Positions 8,535 to 54,650 of a stretch of 64,000 nt of DNA are shown here, piece after piece. This DNA comes from Thermoanaerobaculia bacterium (GTDB lineage Bacteria; Acidobacteriota; Thermoanaerobaculia; UBA5066): the NCBI GenBank assembly GCA_963719225.1, contig CAVRAY010000001.1, positions 2,944,001 to 3,008,000 of the forward strand, read 5' to 3'. Numbering within the stretch: position 1 is the stretch's first letter; each line of letters opens with the position of its first letter. The position numbers and the translations under genes are program-made. The notes under the pieces were generated by a model. That model ran no database searches. It saw nothing but the letters and a program-made list of their open reading frames with translations, and had not been told where the DNA came from.

Positions 8535-10505
8535 ATGATCGAGCCCGACAGGCGCGAGTGGCTCGAAACGAACGGCCTCGGCGGGTACGCGATGTCGACG
8601 GTCACCGGCGAAAACACGCGCAGGTATCACGGTCTCCTCGTGGCGGCGACGAAACCGCCCGTGGGCCGCGTCGTGCTTCTCTCGAAGCTCGAGGAGACGC
8701 TCGTCGTCGCCGGTCGGCGGATCGACCTCTCGACGAACCGCTTCCCCGGCGTCACACACCCCGAGGGCTATCGGTTCCTGGAGGACTTCCGGAAGCATCC
8801 GTTCCCGACGTTCACGTGGGACGTGGACGGCGTCGTCCTGGAGAAGGAAGTCTTCATGCCGCGCGGCGAGAACGCCGTGTGGGTGACGTGGCGGATTCTG
8901 GATCGTGGTACGCAGGAGCGGTCGATCGGCCTCGAGGTGCGCCCCCTCGTCGCTTTCCGCGACTTCCACGCGCTGACGCACGAGAACGACGGGCTTGACC
9001 GGACGGTCGAGATCGCCGAGGGGAAGATCAGAATTGCTCCATACGGAGGTCTCCCCGAGCTCTTCATCGCGCACGACGGCAGCGCGGAGCGAGCTGGAGA
9101 CTGGTACAGATCCTTCGAGTATGAAGAGGAGAGGGCTCGAGGGTTCGACTTCAGCGAGGATCTGTGGCATCCGGTGACCCTCTCTTACTCATTCGAAGAA
9201 ACTCCCGGACGCGCGACCGCTCGCAGGGCCGCCAACTTCGTCGCTTCCACCTCCCCCCGCTCCGCATCCGACATTCACCTTCTAAGAAAAAACGAGCTCA
9301 CCCGGCGCGAGAACATCGCTGCAAAGGGTGGGCGCAGCCCATTCGTGCGCGCGCTCTTGCGCGCTTCCGACCAGTTCCTCGTCGCCCGCGGCAACCTGAC
9401 GACGGTGATCGCCGGCTACCCGTGGTTCTCCGACTGGGGCCGCGACACGATGATCTCGCTGCCGGGCCTCACGCTGACGACCGGCCGGCCGGAGGTGGCG
9501 AAGGAGATCCTCCTCGCGTTTTCGGAACACGTGGATCAGGGGATGCTCCCGAACCGCTTCCCGGACGCCGGAGACGCGGAGGAGCCGGAATACAACACCG
9601 TCGACGCGACGCTCTGGTACTTCGAGGCCGTGCGGCAGTACGTGGAGGCGACGGGCGACCTCGCGCTCGTCCGCGACCGCCTCTTCGGCGTCCTCGCGGA
9701 CATCGTCTCCTGGCACGAGCGCGGCACGCGCTACGGAATCCGCGTGGACGAAGACGGCCTCCTCGAATGGCACGCCTCCGGCGAGGCGCTCACGTGGATG
9801 GATGCGCGGATTGGAGGCCGACCGGTCACGCCGCGCGAGGGCAAGCCGGTCGAGATCCAGGCCCTGTGGTTCAACGCCCTCCGCACGATGAGCGACTTCG
9901 CGAGGAAGATCGGGGAAGAAAATTCTTCGAATGATTATCGGGCTCGTGCGGAGGTGTGCCGCGCGAGCTTTCTCTCGGTCTTCCCCGACGAGGGCGAAGG
10001 CCGCGGCCTCGTCGACTGCATCGACGGGACCTTCCGCGACCGCTCCATCCGCCCAAACCAGCTCTTCGCCGTGAGCCTCCACCACTCGATGGTTCCGAAG
10101 CCCCTCGCCCGAGGCGTCCTCGCGGTCGTCGAGGAGCACCTCCTGACGCCGTACGGTCTCCGCACGCTCTCACCGAGGGACCCGGCGTACCGCGGTCGCT
10201 ACGAAGGGGGACCGGCGGAGCGCGACTCGGCGTATCACCAGGGCACGGTGTGGCCGTGGCTCCTCGGGGCCTACGCGACGGCGTTCCGCCGGCTACACGG
10301 CGAAGGATCGAAGACCAAGAACGCGATCCGCCGCCTCCTCGCGCCGCTCCGGGATTTCCTGGTCGGCGACGGACTCGGGCAGCTTCCGGAGATCTTCGAC
10401 GGCGATGCGCCCCACCGACCGCGCGGCTGCCCGGCGCAAGCCTGGAGCGTCGCCGAGCTCCTGCGCGCAGCCGTCGACGCGAAAGCCCTGAAAACCCGGG
10501 AATAA
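8535..10505 (+). CDS. Glycogen debranching enzyme (amylo-alpha-1,6-glucosidase, GDE_N plus GDE_C)
   Basis: REWLETNGLGGYA...TRRYHGLLVAA, IAGYPWFSDWGRDTMISLPGL, YHQGTVWPWL, GCPAQAWSVAE. Confidence 0.93.
   Translation: MIEPDRREWLETNGLGGYAMSTVTGENTRRYHGLLVAATKPPVGRVVLLSKLEETLVVAGRRIDLSTNRFPGVTHPEGYRFLEDFRKHPFPTFTWDVDGVVLEKEVFMPRGENAVWVTWRILDRGTQERSIGLEVRPLVAFRDFHALTHENDGLDRTVEIAEGKIRIAPYGGLPELFIAHDGSAERAGDWYRSFEYEEERARGFDFSEDLWHPVTLSYSFEETPGRATARRAANFVASTSPRSASDIHLLRKNELTRRENIAAKGGRSPFVRALLRASDQFLVARGNLTTVIAGYPWFSDWGRDTMISLPGLTLTTGRPEVAKEILLAFSEHVDQGMLPNRFPDAGDAEEPEYNTVDATLWYFEAVRQYVEATGDLALVRDRLFGVLADIVSWHERGTRYGIRVDEDGLLEWHASGEALTWMDARIGGRPVTPREGKPVEIQALWFNALRTMSDFARKIGEENSSNDYRARAEVCRASFLSVFPDEGEGRGLVDCIDGTFRDRSIRPNQLFAVSLHHSMVPKPLARGVLAVVEEHLLTPYGLRTLSPRDPAYRGRYEGGPAERDSAYHQGTVWPWLLGAYATAFRRLHGEGSKTKNAIRRLLAPLRDFLVGDGLGQLPEIFDGDAPHRPRGCPAQAWSVAELLRAAVDAKALKTRE
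9276..9288 (+). repeat. Dispersed motif CACCTTCTAAGAA, in the debranching enzyme gene
   Basis: Exact 13-mer, read as HLLRK. Confidence 0.8.
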
Positions 10506-10554
10506 GACGGATCCCTTCCGGCATCCACCCCTTCGAAGCCGAAAGGAGAGCCCA

Positions 10555-11037
10555 TTGAAGCTGGCCCGGCTCGTTCTGGGGCTCGACGCTCGAATGGCGA
10601 AACTCCTCGCGCCACTTTCAGACGTCGTGCTGCTCGTCCTACGAGCCACATGGGGATGGCAGTTCTTCCAGACGGGCCTCGGAAAGCTCCGGAACATCGA
10701 GCGCGTCATCACGTTCTTCACGTCCCTCGGGATTCCGGCCCCGGCCCTGAGCGCGTATTTCGTCGGAACGCTCGAGATGGCCGGAGGTCTGCTCCTGCTC
10801 GTGGGCCTTTTCGCGCGCCCCGTCGCCCTTCTCCTCGCAGGGAACATGGTCGTGGCCTATCTCACCGCTGACCGCGGTGCGCTCTTCGGCGTTCTTTCCA
10901 ACCTCGAAGCCTTCCAGAAGGCGGATCCCTTCATGTTCCTCCTCGTCTCCGTGATCGTCCTCGCGTTCGGTGCGGGCGCCGTATCACTGGATCGCCTCAT
11001 GCAAAAGGCCGGAGCGGCTGATCCAGGTCCTCCGTGA
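10555..11037 (+). CDS. DoxX family membrane protein (BufD-like)
   Basis: LLVLRATWGWQFFQTGLGKL...F.SLGIPAP...E..GGLLLLVGL.AR...GAGAVSLD; TTG start after an AAGGAG RBS. Confidence 0.88.
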   Translation: MKLARLVLGLDARMAKLLAPLSDVVLLVLRATWGWQFFQTGLGKLRNIERVITFFTSLGIPAPALSAYFVGTLEMAGGLLLLVGLFARPVALLLAGNMVVAYLTADRGALFGVLSNLEAFQKADPFMFLLVSVIVLAFGAGAVSLDRLMQKAGAADPGPP

Positions 11038-11547: not shown

Positions 11548-11558
11548 TTCTTCTTCCC

Positions 11559-12431
11559 ATGGGAGACCGGTTCGGATTGCCCGATCTCGGCGTGGGGGTC
11601 GGGCTCCGCACGGTCCACTTCGGACACGTCCTCTCGAAGGCGCCCGACGTGGACTTCTTCGAGGCCCTCACCGAGAACTTTCTCGATACGGGCGGGCGGC
11701 CGCGCTACGTGCTCGACCGCGTCGCTGAGCGCTATCCGATCGTCCTCCACGGCGTCTCGATGTCCATCGGGGGGGCGGACCCTCTCGACCTCGGTTACCT
11801 GAAGAAGGTCAAGGCGCTCGCCGCGCGCGTGAACGCGCAGTGGGTGTCGGATCACCTCTGCTTCACCGGAGTTTCGGGGCGCAACACACACGACCTGCTC
11901 CCCCTGCCGTACAACGAGGAGACTCTGCGCCACGTCGTGTCCCGCGTGAAGCAGGCCTCCGACGCCCTCGAGCAGCCCCTCGTCCTCGAGAACCCGTCCT
12001 CGTACCTGGAGTTCCGGTCCTCGACGATGTCCGAGGCCGCGTTCTTCGCGCGCCTCCTGGAGGACGCAGACTGCGGGATGCTGCTCGACGTGAACAACGT
12101 CTACGTGAGTTCCGTGAACCACGGGTTCGATCCCGTCGCCTATCTCGATGCGATTCCGGCGGACCGAGTCGTGCAGTACCACCTCGCCGGCCACACCGAC
12201 AAGGGCACTCACCTCCTCGACACGCACAGCGCGCGCATGAAGAGGGACGTCTGGAAGCTCTATGCGCACGCGATCGCCCGCACGGGGCCGCGCACCACGC
12301 TGTACGAATGGGACGAGGACATCCCGAGCTTCAAGACCCTCCACGGCGAGGCGAAGAAGGCCTTCAGGTATCGCCCGCCCTTCGTGCGCGAATCCCGCTT
12401 CGACGCTCCGCGGCGGGCTGCCCGTGCCTGA
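11559..12431 (+). CDS. DUF692 multinuclear non-heme iron oxidative enzyme (MNIO; BufB-like)
   Basis: GVGLRTVH, FFEALTENF, LHGVSMSIG, WVSDHLCF, HDLLPLPY, LENPSSY, LLDVNNVYV, YHLAGH, LDTH, LYEWD. Confidence 0.95.
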   Translation: MGDRFGLPDLGVGVGLRTVHFGHVLSKAPDVDFFEALTENFLDTGGRPRYVLDRVAERYPIVLHGVSMSIGGADPLDLGYLKKVKALAARVNAQWVSDHLCFTGVSGRNTHDLLPLPYNEETLRHVVSRVKQASDALEQPLVLENPSSYLEFRSSTMSEAAFFARLLEDADCGMLLDVNNVYVSSVNHGFDPVAYLDAIPADRVVQYHLAGHTDKGTHLLDTHSARMKRDVWKLYAHAIARTGPRTTLYEWDEDIPSFKTLHGEAKKAFRYRPPFVRESRFDAPRRAARA

Positions 12432-13254
12432 GCTGCCGCGTCTCGAGCGTTGGATGCAGGCTGTGATCGTGCACCCGGCCGGCGTCGAAAAAGCCGTCCG
12501 CGCCCCGTCCGCGACGCGCCACTTGAGAGTTGCCGAAGCGCGCCGGGCGATCCTCCCTTCCCGGACGATGGAGCCCCTCGAGCGGCTCGCGGTCTATCAG
12601 GGGATGTTCCCGCTGCGCATGCACGATGCGCTGGCGGCCGATTATCCCGGCGTCGCCGCCTTCCTCGGACCCGAACGCTTCTTCGAATTCGTCCTCGCCT
12701 ACGTGGCGGTCCATCCCTCCCGCAGCTACACGTTCGCCCACCTCGGCACCCACGTGCCTGAGTTCCTGAGGAGAACGCGTCGCTTCTACCCCGCTCCCTT
12801 CCTCCACGACCTCGCGCGTCTCGAGCGCGCGATCACCGAGGTGTTCGAAGTCGACGAAGAGGGCGCGCAGCACCCGGTGCGACCGCTCCGCCACGTCGCC
12901 GCGGATTGGGAGTCGCGGCGCTTCGCCACGCCCTCGACGCTTCGGCTTCTCGCATTCGACCACGCCGCGGGAGCCGCGCTCGACGCGCTGAAGGCGGGGA
13001 AGCGTCCGCAAACCCGCCCGCGCGCGACGTGGACGGCGCTGCACCGCCGCCGCTACGCGGTCTACCGTCTCGAGCTGACGCGGCAGGAATTCCATCTCCT
13101 CGGCGCCCTCGCGAAGGGACGGACGCTCGGGGCGGCGCTTCGCGCGGCGGCCCGCGCATTTGGGAAAACGCTCGAGCCGCGCGCCGTCACGCGCGCGTTT
13201 CGCACCTTCACCGCGGAAGGCCTGCTTGCGGGGGTTGAGGGAAATCGATCCTAG
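12424..13254 (+). CDS. DUF2063/HvfC-BufC-like MNIO partner protein
   Basis: GTG start overlapping the DUF692 stop. ERLAVYQGMFPLRMHDALAADYPGVAAFLG..F...Y...HPS.S and DLARLERA are typical of this family. Confidence 0.85.
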   Translation: MPELPRLERWMQAVIVHPAGVEKAVRAPSATRHLRVAEARRAILPSRTMEPLERLAVYQGMFPLRMHDALAADYPGVAAFLGPERFFEFVLAYVAVHPSRSYTFAHLGTHVPEFLRRTRRFYPAPFLHDLARLERAITEVFEVDEEGAQHPVRPLRHVAADWESRRFATPSTLRLLAFDHAAGAALDALKAGKRPQTRPRATWTALHRRRYAVYRLELTRQEFHLLGALAKGRTLGAALRAAARAFGKTLEPRAVTRAFRTFTAEGLLAGVEGNRS

Positions 13255-13484
13255 GGCTTCGGTGCGCGCGGCGGCAGATCGCACGCCTGCGGATCCGACT
13301 GGAAGCCGATCTTGTTGTGGGTGCCGTCGCAGAACGGCTTGCTCGCGGACCCGCCGCAGCGGCAAAAGGCGATCGTCGTGCGGCCGCCGAGCCCGAACGC
13401 CTTCTCCGTGCCGTCCACGACGTTGACGTCCCCGGTCACGAGGAGCGGGCCGTTCGGCTTCACCAGAATCTTGACGTCGCTCAT
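13251..13484 (-). CDS. CDGSH iron-sulfur domain protein
   Basis: NGPLLVTG...FCRCGGSASKPFCDGTH. Confidence 0.93.
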   Translation of the reverse strand: MSDVKILVKPNGPLLVTGDVNVVDGTEKAFGLGGRTTIAFCRCGGSASKPFCDGTHNKIGFQSDPQACDLPPRAPKP

Positions 13485-17216: not shown

Positions 17217-19085
17217 CTATTTCTTTCTAAGAGAATCTCCCGGTCTTTCCCCCGAGAGCGACTCTTCCGCGTCCGCGTACATCTTGTCGATGACGTCCCT
17301 GTACTTGTCGGCGATCACGCGGCGCTTGATCTTCATCGTGGGCGTCAGCTCGCCGCCCTCGATCGTGAAGTCGTTCGTGAGAAGGCTGAACGCGCGGATC
17401 TGACGCTCGTGAGGCTCGTCGCCGTTCAGGATGTCGATCGCCTGCTTCACGAGAGAGAGGACCTTAGGATTCTTCACGAGCGCGTCGCGGTCCCGGTACT
17501 TCACGCCGGTGGAGAGCGCCCAGGCCTCGAGCTTCTCGAAGTTCGGCACGATGAGCGCCGACAGGAACTTCCGTCGGTCCCCGATGAGGACCGCGGACGA
17601 GACGTACCGCACGGACCGAAGCGCGGCTTCGATCGGCGCCGGTGCGATGTTCTTGCCGTAGGCGTTGATGAGGATCTCTTTCTTGCGGTCGGTGAGAGTG
17701 AGGAACCCGTCCTCGTCGAAGGAGCCGATGTCGCCCGTCAGGAACCATCCATCCGCATCGAAGACGCTCGCGGTCTCTTCCGGCTTCCGCCAGTAGCCGC
17801 CCTCCATCACGTTCGGACCCTTCGCGAGGACCTCGCCGTCCGGGGCGATCTTCAACATGACACCGGGGATCGCGCGCCCGACCGTGCCGAGGCGCCACTC
17901 CCCCGGACGATTGCAGGCGAGAACGGGGCTCGTCTCCGTGAGGCCGTAGCCCTCGTACACCTCGATGCCCGCCGCCCAGAAGAATTCGGCGACGTCGCGC
18001 GAAAGCGGCGCGCCGCCCGAGATCGCAAAGAGAAACCGCCCGCCGAGCCTGGCTTTGATCTTCCCGAAGACGAGCCTGTCCGCGAGCGCGAACTTCGCCC
18101 TCAAGAAGAACCCCGGCGAATTCCCCGCCTCGACGGCCGCGAGACGGCGGAGGCCCGTCGAAACGCCCCAGTTGAAGATCGCCCGGCGCAGCGCCGGAGC
18201 GCTCTCCACCGCCGCCTGGACGCGCATGAGCATCTTTTCGTACACGCGCGGGACGGCGGCAAAGCAATCCGGCTTGATCTCGACGAAATTCTCCGAGAGC
18301 TTGTCGATCGACTCGGCGTACGTGATGGTCGCGGCCCGCGAAAAGAAGAGATAGTCGACCATTCGCTCGAAAACGTGCGAGAGAGGCAGGAAGGACAAGG
18401 CGCTCGTGTCGCCGGTCACGTCGAAGAGGGCGGAGCAGGCGGCGACGTTCGACACGAAGTTCTCGTGCGTCAGGATCGCGCCCTTCGGCTCGCCCGTCGT
18501 GCCCGACGTGTAGATCATCGTCGCGAGATCCCCTGGAAGGACCGAGGACGCGCGTTCCTCGAAAGCCTCCGGATCGGCGCGCAGAGCCGCGAGGCCCTTC
18601 TGGACCACGGTCGCGAAAGGCGTGGCCTTCCCGCCGCTCCAGGGCACGTGGTCGAGAACGATCACGTGCTTGAGCTCCGGGCACCGGTCCCGGACGTCGA
18701 CGACTTTCTGGAGCTCGACGGCGGTCGAGACGACGACGACTTTCGCGAGCGAGTCCCGGAGGATGTACTCGACCTGCGGCGCGAGGTAGCTCGTGTAGAT
18801 CGGCACGCTGAGCGCGCCGAGGGAAAGGGCCGCGAAGTCCGTCATCGGCCACTCGGGACGGTTCTCCGAGAGGATCGCGACGCGGTCGTCCCGGTCGACG
18901 CCGAGGAGCGCGAGCCCCAGCGCGAGGCCCCGGGTGCGCTCTCCGAAGTCCTCCGCCGAGAGGGACGTCCACGTCCCGCCGACCTTCGACACGAGGAGCT
19001 CCGCCTTCCCGCTCGAGGCGGCATATCGAAAATAGTCCAGCAGAGTTTGGGCGGGAAGCGGTTCGAGCACGATCTTCCGATCCAT
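17217..19085 (-). CDS. Long-chain fatty acid-CoA ligase (AMP-dependent synthetase)
   Basis: MIYTSGTTGEPKG, SFLPLSHVFER, EGYGLTETSP, GWFLTGDIG, DRKKEILI. Confidence 0.93.
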   Translation of the reverse strand: MDRKIVLEPLPAQTLLDYFRYAASSGKAELLVSKVGGTWTSLSAEDFGERTRGLALGLALLGVDRDDRVAILSENRPEWPMTDFAALSLGALSVPIYTSYLAPQVEYILRDSLAKVVVVSTAVELQKVVDVRDRCPELKHVIVLDHVPWSGGKATPFATVVQKGLAALRADPEAFEERASSVLPGDLATMIYTSGTTGEPKGAILTHENFVSNVAACSALFDVTGDTSALSFLPLSHVFERMVDYLFFSRAATITYAESIDKLSENFVEIKPDCFAAVPRVYEKMLMRVQAAVESAPALRRAIFNWGVSTGLRRLAAVEAGNSPGFFLRAKFALADRLVFGKIKARLGGRFLFAISGGAPLSRDVAEFFWAAGIEVYEGYGLTETSPVLACNRPGEWRLGTVGRAIPGVMLKIAPDGEVLAKGPNVMEGGYWRKPEETASVFDADGWFLTGDIGSFDEDGFLTLTDRKKEILINAYGKNIAPAPIEAALRSVRYVSSAVLIGDRRKFLSALIVPNFEKLEAWALSTGVKYRDRDALVKNPKVLSLVKQAIDILNGDEPHERQIRAFSLLTNDFTIEGGELTPTMKIKRRVIADKYRDVIDKMYADAEESLSGERPGDSLRKK

Positions 19086-20337: not shown

Positions 20338-21567
20338 TCAGAATCGGTGAACGAACAGGCCGGAGCGCAGCTTCGGCTCGAACCACGTGGACTTCGGCGG
20401 CATCGTGACCCCTGCGTCCGCGATCGCCATGACCTCGGCGAGGGACGTCGGGAACATCGCGAACGCGACGGCTCCCCGCCCCGAGCGCACGCGCTCCTCG
20501 AGCTCCCCCGTGCCGCGGATCCCACCGACGAAGTCGACGCGCGGGTCGGTGCGGGGATCGCCGATGCCGAGGACGGGCCCGAGGAGACGGTCCTGGAGAA
20601 TCGAAACGTCCAGAGATTCAATGGGATCTGAAACCGCAATCGGCTCGCTCGGTGTCAGGGTCTGCCAATTTTCTTCGAAGAACATGGAGAACTCGCCTTT
20701 TCGCGACGGCGAAGCAGCAGAAGCGGGCGCAATCGAAAACCTCTTTCTCACACCTTCTAAGAAATCCCCGGTCGTCTTCCCCCCCAGGTCTTTCACGACC
20801 CGGTTGTACGGAAGGATGGCGAGCTGGTCGTCCGGGAAGATCGCCGCGGGAAACCAGTTGACCGGATGCTCGTCCGGAAGAGTCCCGACCTTTCCTTTCA
20901 CGGCCTGGCGTGCGCGCGCGGCCGACGCGCAGCGGTGATGGCCGTCGGCGACGTAGAGAAAGGGCACGGATGCGAAGGACGCGACGAAGAACGCGGCGTC
21001 GCCCTCCGGCACGATCCAGAGGGTGTGTCTCACGCCGTCCGGAGCCTCGAAGTCGAACTCGGGAGCCGCCGCGGTCACGCGGGCGACGCGGCCGTCGATC
21101 GAGTCCGCCGCCCGATAGGTCAGGAACACCGGCTCGGCGTGGGCCGACTGCGCGAGCAGATGCCGGACGCGGTCGTCTTCCTTGTCGGGACGCGTCTTCT
21201 CGTGCTTGCGGATGACGTCCGCGTCGTAGTCGTCCACCGAGCACGCGGCGACGACGCCGTCCTGAGTGCGCCCTCTCCACGTCTGGCGGTAGACGAGGAG
21301 ACGGGGGACGGCGTCGCTCTCGAGGGTGCCGTTCGCGTAAAAGGCGTCGAGGTTCTCGCGCCCCTTCGCGTAGACGGCGTCGGAATGGATGTCGACGTTC
21401 TCCGGCAGGTCGATCTCCGGGCGGCAGACGTGCAGGAACGACAACGGGTTTCCGGCCGCGAGCGCGCGGGCCTCGGGCGTGTCCACGACGTCGTAGGGGA
21501 CGGATGCGACGCGCGCCGCGAGCTTGCGGGGGGGCCGGCCGGAGGGGAAAGGACGGATGCGAGCCAT
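20338..21567 (-). CDS. DUF1015 family protein
   Basis: ASVPYDVV, IRKHEKTRPDKEDDR, YVADGHHRCASA, MPPKSTWFEPKLRSGL. Confidence 0.93.
   Translation of the reverse strand: MARIRPFPSGRPPRKLAARVASVPYDVVDTPEARALAAGNPLSFLHVCRPEIDLPENVDIHSDAVYAKGRENLDAFYANGTLESDAVPRLLVYRQTWRGRTQDGVVAACSVDDYDADVIRKHEKTRPDKEDDRVRHLLAQSAHAEPVFLTYRAADSIDGRVARVTAAAPEFDFEAPDGVRHTLWIVPEGDAAFFVASFASVPFLYVADGHHRCASAARARQAVKGKVGTLPDEHPVNWFPAAIFPDDQLAILPYNRVVKDLGGKTTGDFLEGVRKRFSIAPASAASPSRKGEFSMFFEENWQTLTPSEPIAVSDPIESLDVSILQDRLLGPVLGIGDPRTDPRVDFVGGIRGTGELEERVRSGRGAVAFAMFPTSLAEVMAIADAGVTMPPKSTWFEPKLRSGLFVHRF
20751..20775 (+). repeat. Dispersed motif CACCTTCTAAGAAATCCCC, in the DUF1015 gene
   Basis: 24 of 25 nt identical to 49139-49163; read as TTGDFLEG on the minus strand. 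Confidence 0.8.
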
Positions 21568-47469: not shown

Positions 47470-48489
47470 CTACACCAGCCCTCGATTCACGAGCTCCGCC
47501 TTCATCCAGGCATAGACGACCGGCGCGAGCACGACTCCCGGAATCCCGAAGGCCGCCTCGAAAACGAGGATCGCGAGGAGCGTCTCCCATGCGGACGCGC
47601 CGATGCGCCCGCCCACGATCTTCGCGTTGAGCAGGTACTCGAGCTTGTGGATGAGGACGAGGAACGCGAGCGATACGGCCGCGACCCAGGGCGCCACGCC
47701 GAGGGAGACGAGGACGATCACCGTGTTCGAGACGAGGTTTCCGGCCACGGGAATGAGACCGCAAAGAAAGGTGATCGCGACGAGCGTGCCTGCCAGCGGA
47801 AGCCGCGCACCCAAGGCCGGCAGGATCGCGAAAACGAAGAGCGCCGTCAGGATCGTGTTGACTGCGGAAATTTCGATCTGGGCCTTCGCGACGGAACGGA
47901 AGCTGTCGCCGAAGCGGACGAGCCTCTCCTGGAGCTGCGCCGCGAGCCGCCCTGGGACGCTCTTCGGTGCGCGGAAGAAGACGAGCACGCCGACGACGGC
48001 GCCCAGCAGCGCATGCACCAGGCCGCGTGCGCCGACGGTTCCCGCGTGGCGCAGCTCGCCCGCATGCTCGCGCAACCAGTCTCCGACGGCCTCAGTCGAT
48101 CCTCCGGGGCCGGGGAGCGGAAGGGGAAGGCCGGCCTCTTCGAGGGTCTCCCTCAAGCGCGCGAGCGTGTCCCCCATCCTCTCGAGCACAGCCGGAAGGT
48201 CGCCGATCCGCCCGCGGACGAAGCCGTAGAGAAGGATGATCGCGAGGGCGACGAGACCCGCCGCGACGAGGCCGAGGAGGCCCGCCGCGAGCGCACGCGC
48301 GAGGCCGTGCGAGACGCGCCCGCCACGCAGCCGACGTGCCATCGATTGGAGAAGAGCCCATGCGAGGAATCCTGCGAGGAGCGCCGGCACGAGATGAAGG
48401 ACCAGCACCGCCAGAAGGGCGAGCGCGGAGAGGACGAATGACGCCCGTTCGTACGGAACGGGGCGGGCAACCGCAGGGGCATCACTCAT
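47470..48489 (-). CDS. AI-2E family transporter
   Basis: AQIEISAVNTILT, GLIPVAGNL, HKLEYLLNAKIVG, EAAFGIPG. Confidence 0.88.
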   Translation of the reverse strand: MSDAPAVARPVPYERASFVLSALALLAVLVLHLVPALLAGFLAWALLQSMARRLRGGRVSHGLARALAAGLLGLVAAGLVALAIILLYGFVRGRIGDLPAVLERMGDTLARLRETLEEAGLPLPLPGPGGSTEAVGDWLREHAGELRHAGTVGARGLVHALLGAVVGVLVFFRAPKSVPGRLAAQLQERLVRFGDSFRSVAKAQIEISAVNTILTALFVFAILPALGARLPLAGTLVAITFLCGLIPVAGNLVSNTVIVLVSLGVAPWVAAVSLAFLVLIHKLEYLLNAKIVGGRIGASAWETLLAILVFEAAFGIPGVVLAPVVYAWMKAELVNRGLV

Positions 48490-49862
48490 CGCGCGGGATT
48501 ATCCGATGCCCGGCGAAACACGCCGGCCAGCCGGTCGCACTCGGCGACGAGGGCGTCGCGCCGCGCGCGCAGGCGCGCGATCCCGCCGGGCGCGAACGCG
48601 AGGGCGAGGAGCTCGCGCGCCTGGCTCTCGCGCCAGGACGCGTACTCGAAGAAGAGAAGAGAAGAGATTCCTGCGAATGGAAGAAAGAGGAGGGCCAGGG
48701 CGGCCCAGAGCGCGCCGGCAACTTTCCAGACAGCAGCTGTCTCGAGCGCGAGGAAGAGCGAGAAGAGGATGGTTCCCGCGACCAGCTTGTAGAGCGCGAT
48801 CTGGTCGCGATGCTCCGAGGCGCCCGGCATGCGGTTCGCGATCGCCCCGCACAGGCGGTAGGGCACCCACCACGCAACCACGCCGACGACGGCGACGGGG
48901 AAACCGACAGCGATCACGGCCAGGGCCCTCAGCGTATGAAAGAGAATGGTCCACGCCGAGGGCGGCGAGTCCAGGGAGGACGCAGTCAAAGAGATTCTTC
49001 TTAGAAGGTGGTTGAAGGCGCGGGCACGCCGCGCGACGGAGGCCACGGCGCCGGGTTCTACACGCTTCAGAACCTCGCGCGCGGCGAGGAGAAGCCGGCG
49101 AACGCGGAACGAACGTGCCAACTCGCCCTCCCCCTCTTCACCTTCTAAGAAATCCCCCGTCGTTCCCTCCCCCGTGGTTCTCTTTCCCGGAATCTTCGAC
49201 CCGTAGAGAGCGTCCACCGCCGCGACGACCTCGTGGTCTTCCCAGTCGTCCGCGTTGAGCGTGACGCCGAGAAGCGCCTGCTCGATTGCCTCCGTCCACG
49301 CCTCGACGGTCGGATCGGCCGGGGGCGCAACGGGTGCGCCGATCTTCACGAGCACGTCGGACCGGAATTCCTCCTTCTTCGTGAACCAGAGGCCGATAGG
49401 GACGACCACCGGGGATTTCTTAGAAAGGAGGAGGACGCGGGCGGCCCCGGTGCGCAGCTCCGAGAGGCGCGGGTCCGAGTGTGAGCGTCCTTCGGGGAAG
49501 ATCAGCACGCAGCCGTCGCGCTCCAGCTCGGCCGCGAGCCGCTCGAACGAGCCGCGATTCCTGTCTTCCCCCTTCGAAGGAATCTCCCGGTCCTCCTCCC
49601 CTCTCCTCACGACCGGCACGCAACCGAGGAGGTCAAGAAGGGTTTTCAGCCCGGGAATCTTCCAGAGCGTGGATTTCGCGACGAAGACGACGGGACGTTC
49701 GACGACGCGAAGGACGAGCATCGGGTCGACGAGCCCGTTGTAATGGTTCGCGACGAAGAGGACCGGGCCCCGGTCCGCCACGTTCTCGCGCCCGGTAACC
49801 TCGACGCGCCGGTAGAAGAGATCGACGAGGAAACGGACGAGCCAGACGACGGCGCGCTTCAC
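48486..49862 (-). CDS. Lysophospholipid/glycerol acyltransferase family protein with C-terminal TM helices
   Basis: ANHYNGLVD (HxxxxD), FVAKSTL, IFPEGRSH; GTGA overlap start. Confidence 0.88.
   Translation of the reverse strand: MKRAVVWLVRFLVDLFYRRVEVTGRENVADRGPVLFVANHYNGLVDPMLVLRVVERPVVFVAKSTLWKIPGLKTLLDLLGCVPVVRRGEEDREIPSKGEDRNRGSFERLAAELERDGCVLIFPEGRSHSDPRLSELRTGAARVLLLSKKSPVVVPIGLWFTKKEEFRSDVLVKIGAPVAPPADPTVEAWTEAIEQALLGVTLNADDWEDHEVVAAVDALYGSKIPGKRTTGEGTTGDFLEGEEGEGELARSFRVRRLLLAAREVLKRVEPGAVASVARRARAFNHLLRRISLTASSLDSPPSAWTILFHTLRALAVIAVGFPVAVVGVVAWWVPYRLCGAIANRMPGASEHRDQIALYKLVAGTILFSLFLALETAAVWKVAGALWAALALLFLPFAGISSLLFFEYASWRESQARELLALAFAPGGIARLRARRDALVAECDRLAGVFRRASDNPAR
48998..49426. 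repeat. Three copies of the TTCTWAGAA motif in the acyltransferase gene
   Basis: 48998-49010 (reverse), 49139-49151 (forward), 49416-49426 (reverse); read as HLLRR, DFLEG and LSKKS. Confidence 0.8.
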
Positions 49863-51178
49863 GCAGGAGGCGCCGCGGCCGGGACTCTCGGGAAGCGCAC
49901 CTTGAGGAATGCGCCGATCGCGAAGACGAGGACGACGAAGAGCACGGAGATCCCCGCGCGATATCCCGCCGGACTCTTGTCCGGGAAGAGCGTGAGGGTC
50001 GCCGCCCAGAGGAAGGGCCCGAGCACGGACGCGGCCTCGCCGGCGAGGGTGAAGAACCCGAAGAACTCGGTCGTGCGCTCCTTCGGAACGAGCGCGATGA
50101 GCCCGAGCCTGCCGGTCACCTTGATGCCGCCGAGTCCGATTCCCGCGAGGACGCCGACGATCGTGAAGGTCCTCGGGTCGCGCACGAGGAGCGCGAGGGC
50201 GAAGACGAGCACCCAGTTGCCGAGCGCCACGAGCGTCGCCGTACGGATCGTCACGCGCTGGCAGAGGAAGCCGTAGAGGAGCCCGCCGACGACCGCCACG
50301 GCAGTCGCGACGAGCAGGAGGATCTGCACCTGGGCATCGTTCAGGCCCACGGCATAACGCGAGTACGTCGACATCTGAATCTGGATCGTGTGGATGACGT
50401 CGATGTAGAGGAAGTTCGCGACGAGGAACCAGAGGAGAGAAGGCGTCGAGGGGAGAGAGCGGATGGTATGGAGAACGTCCCGAAGAGGGGATGAAGAGGG
50501 AGAGAGAGATTTCTTGGAAGGGGAAGAGGGGCGGGGCAGGCGCGCAAAGAACAGCAGCGGGACGGCCGCCGCGAGCCACAGCAGCGCCGTCGGCAGATAG
50601 GCGTTCTGGCGCACCCAGGCCGCATTTACATTCGAAGAAACCTGCGTGACCGACAACGCATCGATTACCGGCAAGAGAATGTGAGGCATCTTTAGCCGGA
50701 TCGCGCCCGACACGAACGGCAGGACGAGGAACATGCCCAGGAGCGATCCGAGATACCCCGCCGCCACGCCGAAGCCCGACACGCGCCCGGAGTTGGTCTC
50801 GTCGGACACGTCCGGGAGAAGCGCGTTGTAGAAGACGTAGGCGCACTGGAACGCGATGTTCGCGAACGCGAAAAAGACGAGAAGGCGCGGCACCGGCCCG
50901 GGTGCGGCGACGAGGGCCGTGAAGGCGACTCCCGCGAGGACGAACGGCACGAGGAAGCGCCGCTTCCCCGCCCGGTCCGCGAGGTGTCCCAGGAACGGCG
51001 CCGCCACCGCCACGACCGCCATCGAGAGGCCGAACGCGAGCGAGAACTTTTCGCTTCCGCGGGGCACGCGTCCGGCGATGTCGAGCGGCAGATGCAGAGA
51101 CAGCAGGTTCATCGCGAAGCTCGTCGCCCCGAGCTCGTAGAGGCTCCACGCGAGGACGGTCCCGCCTCGGACCTTCAC
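49859..51178 (-). CDS. MFS transporter (UMF1/Atg22-like)
   Basis: AWSLYELG, APFLGHLADR, FYNALLPDV, GRVSGFG...GYLG, EFFGFF. Confidence 0.88.
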   Translation of the reverse strand: MKVRGGTVLAWSLYELGATSFAMNLLSLHLPLDIAGRVPRGSEKFSLAFGLSMAVVAVAAPFLGHLADRAGKRRFLVPFVLAGVAFTALVAAPGPVPRLLVFFAFANIAFQCAYVFYNALLPDVSDETNSGRVSGFGVAAGYLGSLLGMFLVLPFVSGAIRLKMPHILLPVIDALSVTQVSSNVNAAWVRQNAYLPTALLWLAAAVPLLFFARLPRPSSPSKKSLSPSSSPLRDVLHTIRSLPSTPSLLWFLVANFLYIDVIHTIQIQMSTYSRYAVGLNDAQVQILLLVATAVAVVGGLLYGFLCQRVTIRTATLVALGNWVLVFALALLVRDPRTFTIVGVLAGIGLGGIKVTGRLGLIALVPKERTTEFFGFFTLAGEAASVLGPFLWAATLTLFPDKSPAGYRAGISVLFVVLVFAIGAFLKVRFPRVPAAAPPA

Positions 51179-51882
51179 GAGATCCTGTAGGCCGGTTGAG
51201 GCCTGCGGGACGGCCGAAAGACCAGCGCCCAGGCGACGCCGAAGACGAATCCGCCGACGTGCGCCCAGAATGCGACGCCCCCCTGCGAAGCCGCCGCCCG
51301 GCCGGCACGCGTGAGCTGCTCCGATCCCATCCAGAACTGCAGCGCGAACCATCCGAGGAGATAGACGCCGGCGGGGACCTCCACGACGGGAAAAAGGACG
51401 AACAGCGGGACGACGGTCACGATGCGGGCGCGCGGGTAATAGACGAGGTACGCCCCGAGGACGCCCGCGATCGCTCCCGAAGCGCCCAGGTTCGGGATCG
51501 CCGACGACGGCGAAAGGAACGCCTGCAGGAGGGTCGCGCACAGGCCCGCCGCGAGGTAGAAGACGAGAAACCGGAAGTGACCGAGCGCGTCCTCGACGTT
51601 GTCGCCGAAGATCCAGAGGAAAAGCATGTTTCCGAGCAGGTGCAAAAGCCCGCCGTGCAGGAACATCGCGGTGAAGATCGTGACGACCGCGGCCGAGAAC
51701 GTCCAGCCGGCGAGCTCGGGGTGAAAGAACCGGAGAGGAATGAACGCGAAGGTGTCGAGGAACGCGTCCAGGGTCTCGCCCTGCAGGATCTCAAGGAAGA
51801 AGGCCGCGACGTTCGCGACGACGAGGAGCCGTGTGACGAAGGGAACGGTCCGCGTCCGGATCGTGTCGCGGAGCGGGATCAT
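51175..51882 (-). CDS. Rhomboid family intramembrane serine protease
   Basis: MFLHGGLLHLLGNMLFLWIFGDNVE, GASGA, AHVGGF. Confidence 0.95.
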   Translation of the reverse strand: MIPLRDTIRTRTVPFVTRLLVVANVAAFFLEILQGETLDAFLDTFAFIPLRFFHPELAGWTFSAAVVTIFTAMFLHGGLLHLLGNMLFLWIFGDNVEDALGHFRFLVFYLAAGLCATLLQAFLSPSSAIPNLGASGAIAGVLGAYLVYYPRARIVTVVPLFVLFPVVEVPAGVYLLGWFALQFWMGSEQLTRAGRAAASQGGVAFWAHVGGFVFGVAWALVFRPSRRPQPAYRIS

Positions 51883-52208: not shown

Positions 52209-52250
52209 GGGGTCTCCTTCTGGCTTTCGCGGTCGCCGGGAAGCGCCGGC

Positions 52251-52279: not shown

Positions 52280-53622
52280 CGCGGGGATTCGCGGCGAAGA
52301 ACGGCCGCCGTGAATCCGTCGTGCGTGCTCCCCGGCAGGATGCGGACGAGGCCATCGCGCGAGACGGCGGCCGCGAGCGGCGCGGGAAGGCCCGCCGCGC
52401 CGGGGACGACGGGGCGGAAGTCCGGCCTCCTTCCGAGGAGCGCGGCCAGCACCTCCTCGTTTTCCTCACGCTCCAACGAGCACGTCACGTAGACGAGCGT
52501 GCCGCCCGGCGCGACGAGGTCGAGCGCCGCTGCGAGGAGCCGCCGCTGGGTCTCGGCGAACCCGGTCAGGTCCTGCGGCTTCAGGCGAAGCCGGATCTCG
52601 GGGTTCTTGCGGAGCGTGCCGGTTCCGGAGCACGGAGCGTCGAGGAGAATCGAGGCGAACCGGCCGACGGGCAGGGGCGGGCGGGCCGCGTCCGCCAGGA
52701 CGACGAGCGCCTCAGGTCGACGTCCGGCAGCTCTCAGGTTGGCGGCGAGCCTGACCGCGCGCGAAACGGACTTCTCGAGCGCGATGACGCCGCGCGCCCG
52801 CCTCGTCGCGAGAAGGGTGCGCGTCTTGCCGCCTGGGGCCGCGGCGAGGTCGATCACGACCTCGGCCGCCGGAACGAGCTCCACCATCGCCTGTGCCGCC
52901 ACGTCGACGACCGCGAGCTCGCCGGATGCGACGCGGGAATTCGAAACGGCATTTCCCGCCGTCACCGTGAGCGCGAGCGGGGCCCACGGCGAACGCACGG
53001 CCTCGACGCCGTCCGCCGCGAGACGCCGGAGGATCTCCTCGGGGGTCCCGGCGCGGGGATCCGCCAGGAGGTCGATCGGCGCGTCCTCGTCGTCGGCCGC
53101 CAGCGCGGCCCGGGCCGCTTCTTCGCCGAATGCCGCGACCCAACGCGCCACGAGCCATTCCGGATGCGACGTCTCGAGCGCGAGCCGGCGGATGGGATCG
53201 ACTTTCCCCGAAAGGACGACGGCGCCGGGCCGCGCCTCTTTCTCGGCCACCCGGCGGAGAACGGCGTTCACGAGGCCTGCCGCCTTCGGCGCGAAGCTTC
53301 GCATCGCGGCCACGGTCTCTCCGACGGCGGCGTGCGGCGGCACGCGATCCATGAGAAGGAGCTGGGCAGCCCCGAGGCGAAGCGCTGCGAGAACCGCCGG
53401 CTCGAGCGACTCCGGCGTCTGCCGGAGATGTCGCGACAGGACGTGGTCGAGACGGATGGCGCCCCGAAGCGTCTTTTTCACGAGCGCGCGCAGAAAGTCG
53501 CGGTCGCGCGGCGGAAGGTCGCGACCGCGTGCGTCCAGAAGAGGCGAGGCGTGCGCGCCGTCCCGGGCCACGCGCACGAGAATTCCGAGCGCCCGCTCGC
53601 GGACGGGCCGCGTATCGCCCAT
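52276..53622 (-). CDS. rsmB: 16S rRNA m5C967 methyltransferase RsmB (NusB domain plus methyltransferase)
   Basis: VNAVLRR, SHPEWL, DLAAAPGGKT, LLDAPCSGTG, YVTCS; downstream of fmt. Confidence 0.9.
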   Translation of the reverse strand: MGDTRPVRERALGILVRVARDGAHASPLLDARGRDLPPRDRDFLRALVKKTLRGAIRLDHVLSRHLRQTPESLEPAVLAALRLGAAQLLLMDRVPPHAAVGETVAAMRSFAPKAAGLVNAVLRRVAEKEARPGAVVLSGKVDPIRRLALETSHPEWLVARWVAAFGEEAARAALAADDEDAPIDLLADPRAGTPEEILRRLAADGVEAVRSPWAPLALTVTAGNAVSNSRVASGELAVVDVAAQAMVELVPAAEVVIDLAAAPGGKTRTLLATRRARGVIALEKSVSRAVRLAANLRAAGRRPEALVVLADAARPPLPVGRFASILLDAPCSGTGTLRKNPEIRLRLKPQDLTGFAETQRRLLAAALDLVAPGGTLVYVTCSLEREENEEVLAALLGRRPDFRPVVPGAAGLPAPLAAAVSRDGLVRILPGSTHDGFTAAVLRRESPR

Positions 53623-54650
53623 CAGCCCCACAGCTCGCCGGGTGCGACGCGCTCGCCGCGCACGAACTCGGCCGCGGCGAGCGGCCTCCTGCCTTCGGAC
53701 TGCAACGTCGCAATCGAGACTGCCCCTTCGCCGCACGCGACGACGATGCGCAGGCCCGCTTCGAGGAGAACCCCCGGGGTTTCTTTGCTCCCTCGCGCAA
53801 CGGAGGCATCTCGCGCGATCGGCGTGAGGCCCGAGAGCTTCAGGCGCGTATTCCTTCGAAAGGTGAAGAGACCAGGCCACGGAGTGAAGGCACGGTCTCG
53901 GCGCGCCAGCTCGGCCGCGGGCCGGGCCCAGTCGACACGGCCGTCCTCGCGGGCGATCTTCGGGCAATACGTAGCCAAGGAAGAATCCTGAGGAAGAGGA
54001 GGAGAGAAGATTTTCTTGGAAGGCGCGGGGGGCGCCGGCACCTCCGCGCCGCCGATGCCGCGCGGCATCAGCGGTGCGGTTGCGTCGGGCAATTCACCTT
54101 CTAAGAAATACAACGTTTCCACCAGTAAACCCGCACCTAACTGCGCCAGCCGCGCGCCGAGGGAAGCAGAATCTTCTCTCTCCCCGATCCTCGTCTCCCG
54201 CGTCGCGTAGACCGGGCCGGTGTCCATCCCGGCGTCCATCTTCATGATCGAGACACCGGTGACCTCCTCTCCCGCGAGGATGGCCGCCTGCACCGGCGAG
54301 GCCCCGCGCCAGCGCGGGAGGAGCGAGCCGTGCACGTTCAGGCAGCCGAGCCGCGGGAGGTCGAGCACCCTCTGCGCCAGGATTTTTCCGTACGCGACGA
54401 CCACGAAGGCGTCGGCACGAGCCTCGGCGAGGCGCGCGACCGCGGCGTCATCCTTCAGCGTAGAAGGCTGGAAGACGTGGATTCCCAGCGACTTCGCCCT
54501 TGCAGCGACGGGCGGATCGGTCACCTCGCCTTTTCGCCCGACGGGTTTTCCCGGCTGGGAAACGACGAGCGGCACGCGATGACCCGCAGCGAGCATCGCC
54601 TCGAGCGTCGGGAGAGCGAAAGGCGGCGATCCGAAAAAAATTATTTGCAC
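53622..54650 (-). CDS. fmt: Methionyl-tRNA formyltransferase, carrying an internal insert of about 28 aa
   Basis: FFGSPPFA, VVAYGKIL, NVHGSLLPRWRGASP, MDAGMDTG, PWPG. Confidence 0.95.
   Translation of the reverse strand: MQIIFFGSPPFALPTLEAMLAAGHRVPLVVSQPGKPVGRKGEVTDPPVAARAKSLGIHVFQPSTLKDDAAVARLAEARADAFVVVAYGKILAQRVLDLPRLGCLNVHGSLLPRWRGASPVQAAILAGEEVTGVSIMKMDAGMDTGPVYATRETRIGEREDSASLGARLAQLGAGLLVETLYFLEGELPDATAPLMPRGIGGAEVPAPPAPSKKIFSPPLPQDSSLATYCPKIAREDGRVDWARPAAELARRDRAFTPWPGLFTFRRNTRLKLSGLTPIARDASVARGSKETPGVLLEAGLRIVVACGEGAVSIATLQSEGRRPLAAAEFVRGERVAPGELWG
54044..54079. repeat. REP-like palindrome inside the fmt insert
   Basis: Perfect 16-bp palindrome GATGCCGCGCGGCATC (54054-54069), extending with one mismatch and one G-T pair to 54044-54079. 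Confidence 0.75.
54095..54107 (+). repeat. Dispersed motif CACCTTCTAAGAA, in fmt
   Basis: Exact 13-mer, read as YFLEGE; degenerate inverted partner TTTCTTGGAAGGCG at 54012-54025. Confidence 0.8.

Follow-up and report, generated by a model that had tools for sequence, protein, structure and literature searches.

Why an AT-rich 13-mer should recur, in different frames and on both strands, within unrelated genes of a bacterium with a G+C-rich genome is the question raised by the window analyzed here, a stretch of 64,000 nucleotides from a Thermoanaerobaculia genome. The answer that we favor, with moderate confidence, is that the 13-mer forms the core of an arm of about 25 nt belonging to small palindromic repeats of a single genus, and that these arms are likely sites for a putative protein that would mobilize the elements and maintain the arms.

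A previous reading based on the sequence only had reported the exact 13-mer CACCTTCTAAGAA at 9276, 20751, 49139, and 54095 on the plus strand and at 48998-49010 on the minus strand, and all five copies were recovered, against 0.01 expected; five or more copies occurred in none of 100 dinucleotide shuffles. The core TTCTWAGAA was likewise present six times (0.05 expected), with the sixth copy at 49417, while a weight matrix also picked up near copies at 17225, 50511, and 54013, and the copies at 20751 and 49139 were indeed identical at 24 of 25 nt. Pfam searches confirmed the two host genes previously named, DUF1015 and an acyltransferase, and added a glycogen debranching enzyme, a methionyl-tRNA formyltransferase (fmt), and an MFS transporter; the acyltransferase gene was missed by the gene caller used here. 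In the whole genome (4.75 Mb, two contigs), 273 cores and 67 13-mers were counted, compared to 6.7 and 0.04 expected under an order-4 Markov model. The codon-aware null proposed earlier gave the same picture, since genes predicted in the present analysis contained 130 cores against 2.8 +/- 1.7 (maximum 8) in 20 synonymous-codon shuffles, and 32 13-mers against 0.1. The suspicion of an assembly artifact was refuted, because the 12-mer CCTTCTAAGAAA recurs 21 to 210 times in each of the 28 independently assembled genomes of the genus, whereas its reversed control occurs 0 to 3 times.

The interpretation of the motif as a DNA-level, genome-wide, and lineage-specific signal rather than a protein motif also held, considering that it is read as HLLRK/R, PSKKS, or DFLEGE and that intergenic copies exist, and the rare codons that it was said to impose were observed. 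Two earlier descriptions required adjustment. The motif TTCTAAGAA is real, but it is merely the commonest variant of TTCNAAGAA, with the central T as the least conserved position of the core (T 54%, G 26%, A 11%, C 8%); and the 13-mers described as single copies were correctly placed, but most of them are one arm of an inverted pair. Among the full-text literature matches listed, none presented TTCTAAGAA as a motif of bacterial genomes.

The repeated unit is an inverted pair of arms of about 25 nt, CCYYWTTCMCC-TTCNAAGAA-AWYY (logo derived from 496 arms), ordered as purine tail, arm, variable core of 40-290 nt, inverted arm, and pyrimidine tail, with the tails outward and the TTCACC sides of both arms turned toward each other. 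About 250 arm pairs occur per genome. Among 771 sites with a matrix score >16, adjacent sites were paired as '-+' in 249 cases versus 13 as '+-', and exact cores alone gave '-+' in 35 of 45 adjacent pairs, with arm-to-arm spacing peaking at 68-97 nt. Predicted genes contain 126 of 248 pairs, 42 lie at gene edges and 12 between diverging genes, and pairs are also frequent between genes with same-direction or converging transcription. No covariation between the arms of a pair was found beyond their shared consensus, and none of the 24 base pairs predicted in a 9-copy alignment showed a compensatory change; base pairing was rejected on these grounds as the selected feature. We infer that the arms probably act through sequence recognition and that the hairpin is incidental to their inverted arrangement. 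The arms and pairs of the window are listed in Table 1.

Table 1. Arms and arm pairs of the repeat family located in the window.
Feature	Position	Strand	Details and basis
DUF1015 arm pair	20659..20777	.	Gene 20338-21567, minus; weak arm core 20671-20679, strong arm with exact 13-mer 20751-20763, spacing 84 nt; weight matrix, Pfam
Acyltransferase arm pair 1	48986..49165	.	Gene 48489-49862, minus; 13-mers 48998-49010 (-) and 49139-49151 (+)
Acyltransferase arm pair 2	49405..49595	.	Cores 49417-49425 (TTCTTAGAA on +) and 49573-49581 (variant TTCGAAGGA)
Variant arm TTCGCAGGAATCTCTTCTCTTC, acyltransferase membrane part	48660..48690	-	Weight matrix, orthologues
MFS/ATG22-like transporter arm pair	50499..50653	.	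Gene 49859-51178, minus; cores 50511 (TTCCAAGAA, minus strand) and 50631 (TTCGAAGAA); weight matrix, Pfam
Compact fmt element	53999..54121	.	Gene 53622-54650, minus; interdomain linker
Debranching enzyme arms, same direction	9180..9302	+	9192 weak; 9276-9288 exact 13-mer
Single weaker arm TTCGAAGAA, debranching enzyme gene	9923..9931	-	Weight matrix, relatives
Single near-copy arm TTCTAAGAG, 3' edge of AMP-binding enzyme gene	17225..17233	+	Weight matrix, Pfam
Single arm TTCGAAGGA, fmt C-terminal domain region	53852..53860	-	Weight matrix
Single variant arm TTCAAAGAA with pyrimidine tail	62579..62587	+	Weight matrix

Alignment of orthologues, also suggested by the sequence-only reading, revealed that arm gains in the DUF1015 and acyltransferase genes coincide with both synonymous and amino-acid-changing substitutions. 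The DUF1015 pair, whose inter-arm stretch is native coding sequence, is found at the same place in four other species of the genus, and its arms are missing without any indel in five outgroup genomes from four genera. The first acyltransferase pair also has a native core, which codes for a conserved helical segment; compared to the outgroups, its arm at 48998 leaves LLRR unchanged while using the codons CTT CTA AGA AGA instead of CTC CTC CGC CGC, and its arm at 49139 sits in an insertion of about 9 amino acids. The second pair is conserved in 14 orthologues, and one of its arms arose by substitution, since the outgroup sequence has equal length, while the variant arm in the membrane part retains the rare codons CTT CCA ... 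GCA GGA ... TCT TCT CTT in nearly all 14 genomes. Altered without indels were thus the DUF1015 arm and acyltransferase sites 1 and 3, for which plain transposition is inadequate because no length change accompanied their origin. These alignments show that clustered substitutions generated arms within native coding DNA while leaving its length unchanged, and such arms fit better with selection or a drive than with transposition.

Once present, the arms resist the composition of the genome. A/T third codon positions of the present genome (G000) were retained in all four relatives at 28 of 59 sites in arms versus 75 of 1598 elsewhere (odds ratio 18, p = 5e-20). Arms were less conserved than the remaining sequence at first and second codon positions, overall third-position identity was no higher in arms (0.46 vs. 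0.40, p = 0.2), and plain identity of arms showed no excess over all aligned bases, the codon-position test being the only informative one. Moreover, when the acyltransferase gene was aligned across 14 genomes, A/T-ending codons clustered at the five arms only, apart from scattered single columns. The comparison shows that A/T-ending codons of arms persist across species despite genomic G+C pressure.

Additional evidence concerns mobility. The motif had been tentatively ascribed to a nucleoid or occlusion protein site, an uptake signal, or a mobile element, and the last of these gained direct support from a copy at a new locus, a site filled in one genome and empty in another, and an indel that preserves the reading frame. 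G000 and G011 share an element at C1:1963209 whose site is empty in G003, the insert comprising 140-190 nt including both tails. The core of this element recurs in G000 at C1:~947477, with 72 of 88 arm-to-arm columns identical (82%), and the latter locus is orthologous to loci of G039, G001, and G007. By this comparison, full elements of 140-190 nt behave as mobile DNA and have been copied to new loci. In fmt, the arm at 54095-54107 is conserved widely, and an in-frame segment of about 80 nt, composed of a GC-rich hairpin core, the arm at 54013-54021, and the pyrimidine tail, is found in G000, G003, G008, and G049 and not in G013 and G031; fmt residues 180-230 fall outside Pfam domains. The arms of the debranching enzyme gene fall between the regions for GDE_N and GDE_C, where the frame is open yet without coding signal (9100-9340), and they are conserved in G003 and G008 and unaligned in G013 and G031. 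Both genes show that elements can occupy interdomain linkers of proteins in frame. Among the remaining features, the transporter pair is found in the sister-genus genome G049 and mostly lost in G050, the single arm at 17225..17233 is retained in G003 only, and that at 53852..53860 occurs in four relatives and in G049. A comparison with public reads covered four runs with noisy matches from related strains, from which only one metagenome contig, skipping 53999-54092 of fmt, was used; no strand-changing joint at an arm pair was seen among the 15 of 30 joints listed.

According to the explanation that we favor, a putative arm-binding enzyme or protein would both move the elements and hold the arms, and the arm consensus may be maintained by a trans-acting protein or by gene conversion among about 600 arms. 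Searches of the genome found no partner transposase for the elements. The Y1/RAYT transposase (PF01797) had no match in G000, in a search whose control matched 6 of 14 known genomes, and a RAYT/REPIN system was rejected accordingly. None of 121 repeated regions of at least 400 bp in G000 was bounded by arms, a screen that a single-copy gene would escape. IS110 was discarded as the parent, its five copies having one arm 65 nt inside one end, an armless opposite end, and insertion flanks that are unrelated. Long-range '-+' neighbors 400-5000 bp apart numbered 19, and the 18 genes tightly flanked by arms were rejected as enzyme candidates, none being transposase-like: 15 are ordinary, with 12 encoding metabolic enzymes, one a transporter permease, and two FG-GAP repeat proteins, and the other three have no Pfam family. 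A recent MITE burst was also rejected: in an all-against-all comparison of the 273 flanks, long matches corresponded only to neighboring overlaps, IS110 copies, and kinase paralogues, and similarity between elements of G000 seldom exceeds about 48 nt, which argues against such a burst.

The distribution of the 12-mer restricts the palindromic-repeat family to one genus, apart from a faint presence in the sister genus, in which seven of eight genomes carry 1-16 copies. The 12-mer was absent from the 26 genomes examined of eight other genera of the family and from all 12 genomes of two other families (11 without the unpublished G019). The roughly 10-fold range of copy number within the genus is consistent with selfish DNA that expands in bursts and then decays, and in some genomes, such as G004, decay of the arms is visible. 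Viral carriage was also considered and rejected, as the 47 viral-contig loci with the 17-mer all have a G+C of 0.47 or less and are thus regarded as chance matches in low-G+C phages. The only passage found in the literature on palindromic repeats of Thermoanaerobaculia reports CRISPR counts.

The arms that originated in place admit a broader proposal, which we put forward only tentatively: a sequence-specific process distinct from ordinary transposition, either a drive or a selected system, may rewrite native coding DNA into paired 25-nt motifs through clustered substitutions, keeping its length and holding rare A/T codons despite G+C pressure. If so, the mobile palindromes would merely make most conspicuous a signal which would represent a new kind of genome-wide cis-code, paired and oriented, and in principle comparable to uptake sequences.

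Somewhat unlikely, in our judgment, is that the arms are host-selected sites of a lineage-specific DNA-binding protein, such as an organizer of the nucleoid or of chromosome domains, which would appear at any position that coding constraints permit, with the mobile copies as by-products that happen to include the site. Such sites would account for arms arising without indels through substitutions, some of which change amino acids, and for the retention of rare A/T codons, and the strict '-+' geometry lacking arm-arm covariation suits a protein that reads two half-sites. The density in G000 is 32.5 pairs per Mb up to 0.8 Mb from the skew minimum, 76.4 in the rest of C1, and 25.2 on contig C2, so that the region around the skew minimum is depleted 2.3-fold (binomial p = 1e-8) and C2 3-fold, which hints at a possible link with chromosome biology; however, this gradient relative to the presumed origin comes from one genome, which showed no strand bias by replichore. 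A 12-mer count from 21 to 210 among genomes of similar size, together with decaying arms, would be unusual for an essential cis-signal; besides, the arm spacing shows no helical periodicity, elements are gained and lost at individual loci, and no candidate protein emerged.

An uptake signal, in which the arms would spread by biased DNA uptake and recombination with inverted pairs as favored variants, is less probable and we consider it doubtful. The known signals, DUS of Neisseria and USS of Pasteurellaceae, occur about once per kb on both strands, prefer tolerant coding positions, form genus-level dialects, and are often found as inverted pairs. The present motif resembles them in being over-represented on both strands, inside and outside genes, and its origin in place through synonymous and conservative changes, its restriction to one genus and, in weak form, the sister genus, its scarcity on the second replicon, and its long weak flanking consensus would be expected of an uptake signal. 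However, the 625-771 matrix sites in 4.75 Mb correspond to 0.13-0.16 per kb (exact cores, about 0.06 per kb), some 10-20 times below the density of DUS and USS; the arm is longer, elements move, copy number spans 10-fold within the genus, and known uptake systems make no use of an orientation rule (249:13 here) or of a 40-290 nt spacing. A ComP_DUS profile search gave no match, with the control equally silent.

A role of the pairs in RNA, as long hairpins serving as bidirectional terminators, shields of mRNA 3' ends, or RNase III substrates, is in our view improbable. Compact elements did fold better than shuffled sequences (intergenic z = -2.34, fmt z = -4.87), arms and tails made up the main stem in all 16 folded examples, the hairpin is followed in the '-+' order by a pyrimidine-rich tail whichever strand is read, and many pairs separate genes that have the same or converging transcription. 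In contrast, pairs with native cores folded poorly (DUF1015 pair, z = +2.34), no compensatory changes were detected, a hairpin has no need of a specific 25-nt sequence, and about half of the pairs lie within genes, with others at gene edges or between diverging genes. Rfam covariance models had no match in the window at the gathering score.

Finally, chance, codon usage, a shared peptide motif, and an assembly or polishing artifact are already refuted and can hardly be entertained, for although codon content predicts 83.8 of the 403 loose TTCNAAGAA matches in genes (about one fifth) and the reversed-sequence control yields 104 matrix matches versus 629, these sources are opposed by a 40- to 1000-fold excess over the Markov, dinucleotide, and synonymous-shuffle nulls, by the three frame-and-strand readings and intergenic copies, by the 28 genomes with near-zero controls, and by the orientation of the arms.

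Among known repeats, the closest kinds, judged by analogy, would be Rickettsia palindromic elements (RPEs), MITEs, and REPINs. A review of MITEs describes RPEs as palindromic repeats of about 100-150 bp, found between genes and in frame in unrelated housekeeping genes, which are old, genus-wide, and tolerated in loops and linkers (PMC10969869). The elements of fmt and the debranching enzyme likewise lie between Pfam domains with the frame open. Here, however, the host is a free-living Acidobacteriota lineage with 68% G+C, most copies share just the arms of about 25 nt and the tails while their cores diverge, and many pairs flank native coding sequence, having arisen by substitution rather than insertion. 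To our knowledge, an origin of arms by substitution has not been described for RPEs. We regard RPEs as an analogue rather than as the family of the present repeats because the phylum differs. Similar to REPs and REPINs, the present repeats pair a short conserved sequence with its inverted copy across a less conserved spacer, as doublets that can form hairpins; they are specific to a lineage, reach hundreds of copies per genome, and comprise old 'singlets' as well. REPs, in contrast, are extragenic and typically carry a GTAG/CTAC head, whereas about half of the present copies are intragenic and this head was not seen.

MITEs such as Correia/NEMIS, ERIC, and BOX share with the present elements the inverted terminal arms, small size, and non-coding nature. 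The same review reports presence/absence of MITEs between relatives and occasional in-frame fusions (PMC10969869), and here too the same element occurs at non-orthologous loci and varies in presence among relatives. Nonetheless, the search of repeated regions and IS110 copies yielded no insertion sequence that shares the arms and could be the parent, no clear target duplication was present at the sole filled/empty site compared, the elements terminate in purine/pyrimidine tails that are fuzzy and differ in length, and core conservation does not extend across the family.

Bacterial genes rarely contain repeats, and the classic exception is provided by the Rickettsia palindromic elements. The present family adds a second case, independent of the first and much larger, from an uncultured, free-living soil lineage of high G+C whose genomes carry about 250 pairs each, half within reading frames. 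Not described for the known families are the creation of arms in native coding sequence by substitution, amino-acid changes included, and the maintenance of their rare codons. In practical terms, the arms lower coding scores and can disrupt gene calls, enlarge linker regions of proteins, and provide a sharp metagenome marker for the genus. If a protein reads the arms, the question of what maintains such repeats would become testable, because species of the genus differ 10-fold in copy number.

The AT-rich motif of the window is established as the core of the conserved part, an arm of about 25 nt, of a family of small palindromic elements confined to a single genus apart from a faint presence in the sister genus; each genome holds about 250 pairs of inverted arms, half of them within genes. 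The five exact 13-mers reported in the sequence-only reading are all present in the window where they were said to lie (0.01 expected; 0 of 100 shuffles reached 5), and its six 9-nt cores (TTCTWAGAA) were equally recovered (0.05 expected). The genome of the window (G000) comprises 4.75 Mb at 68% G+C in two contigs, C1 and C2, and the window itself occupies C1:2944001-3008000. Genome-wide, we counted 273 cores, 146 of them on the + strand and 127 on the - strand, along with 67 13-mers, against 6.7 and 0.04, respectively, expected under an order-4 Markov model, and since the pentamer CTAAG occurs just 378 times in the entire genome, about four in ten CTAAG belong to the motif. The enrichment also held under the codon-aware null that the sequence-only reading had called for, in which synonymous codons were shuffled inside each of 3441 predicted genes (20 shuffles), with 130 cores in genes compared to 2.8 +/- 1.7 (20-shuffle maximum 8) and 32 13-mers compared to 0.1. 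Nor can the motif be put down to an artefact in a single assembly: the 12-mer CCTTCTAAGAAA occurs at 21-210 copies in all 28 other genomes of the genus, where its backwards-read control has 0-3 copies per genome.

The same 12-mer was found in 7 of 8 genomes of the sister genus (1-16 copies each), in none of 26 genomes from eight other genera of the family, and in none of 12 genomes from two other families of the order (none of 11 without the unpublished genome G019). When some 185,000 species genomes were scanned for a 17-mer, at least 80 loci matched; among the matches listed, most are titled as Thermoanaerobaculia or Acidobacteriota metagenome-assembled genomes, and the others are single chance matches in low-G+C taxa.

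Alignment of all cores with their flanks gave an asymmetric arm consensus of about 25 nt, CCYYWTTCMCC-TTCNAAGAA-AWYY, after which comes a G-poor, pyrimidine-rich tail of about 30 nt. The central N is the core position with the lowest conservation, so that TTCTAAGAA is merely the commonest variant. A weight matrix detected 629 sites at scores >20 and 784 at scores >16, against 104 and 229 in the reversed-sequence control. Neighbouring sites up to 400 bp apart were in '-+' order in 249 cases, compared with 13 '+-', 34 '--' and 31 '++', and exact cores only gave '-+' in 35 of 45 neighbouring pairs. Within each pair, the two TTCACC sides point towards each other and the tails outward, the top strand having a purine-rich left tail and a pyrimidine-rich right tail; the spacing between cores is most often 68-97 nt, with values up to about 290 nt becoming rarer, and no 10.5-nt periodicity was found in it. 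Most window copies previously taken as single turned out to be one half of a pair, their partners bearing the variant cores TTCGAAGAA, TTCCAAGAA or TTCGAAGGA.

Table. Arm pairs in the window and distribution of pairs over the genes and contigs of G000
Feature	Location	Number	Basis or density
Arm pair	window, cores 20671/20755		weight-matrix matches
Arm pair	window, cores 48998/49143		weight-matrix matches
Arm pair	window, cores 49417/49573		weight-matrix matches
Arm pair	window, cores 50511/50631		weight-matrix matches
Arm pair	window, cores 54013/54099		weight-matrix matches
Pairs	inside genes	126 of 248	
Pairs	across gene edge	42 of 248	
Pairs	intergenic, codirectional neighbours	58 of 248	
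Pairs	intergenic, diverging neighbours	12 of 248	
Pairs	intergenic, converging neighbours	10 of 248	
Pairs (G000 only)	C1, up to 0.8 Mb from position 0	52	32.5 per Mb
Pairs (G000 only)	C1 remainder	174	76.4 per Mb
Pairs (G000 only)	contig C2	22	25.2 per Mb

The positions of the 248 pairs relative to genes (see the table) were obtained with a crude in-house codon-likelihood gene caller. The Pfam-assigned host genes of the window encode a glycogen debranching enzyme, a DUF1015 protein, an acyltransferase, an MFS/ATG22-like transporter and a methionyl-tRNA formyltransferase, and in all five the open frame continues across the arms, which yield HLLR(K/R) or PSKKS when read one way and DFLEGE when read the other; the remaining arm frames hold stop codons. 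The caller failed to call the acyltransferase gene, probably because the arms lower its coding score, and arm-bearing genes may be mis-called in the automatic annotation of these genomes. This gene is spanned by a 940-codon open frame (window 48486-51308, minus) that overlaps the upstream transporter gene in a different frame. An arm variant at 62579 was also observed in the gene of a predicted 347-residue protein (window 62183-63226, +) that matched no Pfam family at E <= 1e-5.

The mobile-element option of the sequence-only reading gained support from filled and empty sites, a paralogous copy at a new locus and in-frame presence or absence in fmt. The element at C1:1963209, with a 64-nt core, is intergenic between two converging genes; the same place is occupied in a second genome (G011) and empty in a third (G003), where the stop codons lie about 12 bases apart. 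The inserted block, spanning purine tail to pyrimidine tail, is about 140 nt long in G000 and reaches about 190 nt in G011, thus tail length varies; the G011 tails have double the length of those in G000. Copies of the 64-nt core were found elsewhere in at least 8 other genomes (72-83% identity over 100-120 nt), and G000 has a second copy, at C1:~947477, which agrees with the first in 72 of 88 arm-to-arm columns and sits at a locus orthologous to element loci in G039, G001 and G007. The presence of the same element at non-orthologous G000 loci indicates that one element was copied to a new site. In fmt, an in-frame block of about 80 nt, made up of a GC-rich hairpin together with an arm and its pyrimidine tail, occupies the linker separating the two Pfam domains in G000, G003, G008 and the sister-genus genome G049, and is absent from G013 and G031, which retain the other arm alone; one public-metagenome contig skips exactly 53999-54092. 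The arms of the debranching enzyme lie between the GDE_N and GDE_C domains, in a 240-nt stretch with an open frame and without coding signal. In the acyltransferase gene, a 10-residue purine-tail expansion (PGKRTTGEGTTG; window 49160-49200, minus) adjoins the arm at 49139 in G000 alone, and tails therefore lengthen or shorten in frame within genes, as they do between genes.

Plain mobile-element insertion cannot explain the arms that arose in place in the acyltransferase, DUF1015 and kinase genes. Both acyltransferase pairs flank native, conserved protein segments. At site 1 (arm at 49417), MVERDV in the outgroup corresponds to LSKKSP in the genus, with equal length; at site 3 (arm at 48998), both encode LLRR, by CTC CTC CGC CGC in the outgroup and CTT CTA AGA AGA here, and the residues that follow are altered, building the pyrimidine tail with no indel. 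Site 2 (arm at 49139), an insertion of about 9 residues, is the sole insertion among the three. Five DUF1015 outgroup genomes of four genera, including both sister-genus genomes, align gap-free, with GAG TTC CTG GCC GCG GTC in place of the strong arm GAT TTC TTA GAA GGT GTG of G000 and TAC TTC AGC GGA GGG in place of the weaker second arm TTC TTC GAA GAA AAT; amino-acid changes accompany the DNA change at the arms. Outside the window, at least 8 paralogous tandem Ser/Thr kinase genes (C1:2293328-2319827) each have an arm pair with a spacing of exactly 93 nt that encloses the part coding for the alphaC helix, and this part is certainly native. The pyrimidine tail of these kinases encodes a poly-Ser/Pro loop.

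Almost all of the 20 window matrix matches recur at an identical position in four further species, whose proteins are 69-79% identical. Arm-column identity is not above that of all aligned DNA, and overall third-position identity did not differ significantly (0.46 in arms vs 0.40 elsewhere, p = 0.2). Genome-wide pressure on third positions is towards G or C, and the A/T third positions of G000 were retained in all four relatives at 28 of 59 arm positions, compared to 75 of 1598 positions outside the arms (odds ratio 18, p = 5e-20). The first and second codon positions are less conserved in arms than elsewhere, which places the arms where protein constraint is weak. Mostly A/T-ending codons were observed in 32 of 446 columns, each scored with 10 or more sequences, of a 14-genome acyltransferase alignment, clustering at the five arms of the gene, scattered single columns excepted. 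Degenerate arms at all three sites were found in some species, such as G004, in agreement with their low genome-wide 12-mer counts; G034, G012 and G035 are low-copy species like G004.

The cumulative GC skew of C1 has its minimum at about 0 and its maximum at 2.10 Mb, and pair density differs within this contig (binomial p = 1e-8, G000 only); no replichore bias in arm orientation was found in G000. Arms that arose in place, rare codons that were retained and this position-dependent density would fit arms that are putative host-selected binding sites, which we consider rather unlikely, and would also fit a drive resembling that of uptake signals, a distinctly improbable reading. Many repeats of at least 400 bp on C2 (0.87 Mb) are mirrored, as 12026-13442 is by 792569-793985 and 147286-150793 by 666088-669591, a pattern that points to a large inverted duplication or to an assembly artefact of the fold-back type. 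G000 is flagged for 6.2% contamination.

Arms of the same pair resemble each other at variable positions no more than arms of different pairs do (z from -2.0 to +3.3, near 0 at variable positions), and compensatory change was seen in none of 24 predicted base pairs among nine homologous copies. Compact elements fold better than shuffles (z = -2.34 and -4.87), and the DUF1015 pair, with its native core, folds no better (z = +2.34). We conclude that it is the sequence of each arm that is retained, the hairpin being a consequence of two inverted arms. An RNA role of the hairpin, against which both the missing covariation and the native-core pairs speak, is improbable.

On balance, we lean towards the arms being recognition sequences of a putative trans-acting factor that moves full elements and keeps the arms alike. 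Such a factor would recognize the arms and mobilize full elements, and arm likeness might be kept up by the factor directly or via gene conversion among about 600 arms. Searches for a partner, which would miss a single-copy, non-transposase reader, found no Y1/RAYT transposase in G000 and no arm-bounded case among its 121 repeated regions of at least 400 bp. An IS110-family element was rejected as an arm-bounded partner, as one arm lies 65 nt inside one end and the other end is armless in five copies. This element encodes a 351-aa DEDD transposase in about 1.52 kb, its five copies lying in C1:2198821-2210165 and C1:1109929-1112942, four of them clustered in 11 kb at a distance of about 0.1 Mb from the maximum of the cumulative GC skew. 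A distinct IS-like repeat of about 1.35 kb has nine copies, spread over both contigs. The 18 closely arm-flanked genes, none transposase-like, were also discarded; they encode 12 metabolic enzymes, a transporter permease, two FG-GAP repeat proteins and three proteins without Pfam match.

In the way the family works, Rickettsia palindromic elements (PMC10969869) are among the closest analogues. REPINs and MITEs are also among them; however, unlike REPINs, the pairs are not confined to extragenic DNA and RAYT was not found, and unlike classical MITEs, no parent element turned up in the partner searches. At the one filled and empty site compared, no clear target duplication was seen. Full-text literature searches found no description of the arm family. 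The paired arms substituted into native coding DNA could be a feature beyond the known kinds of repeats.
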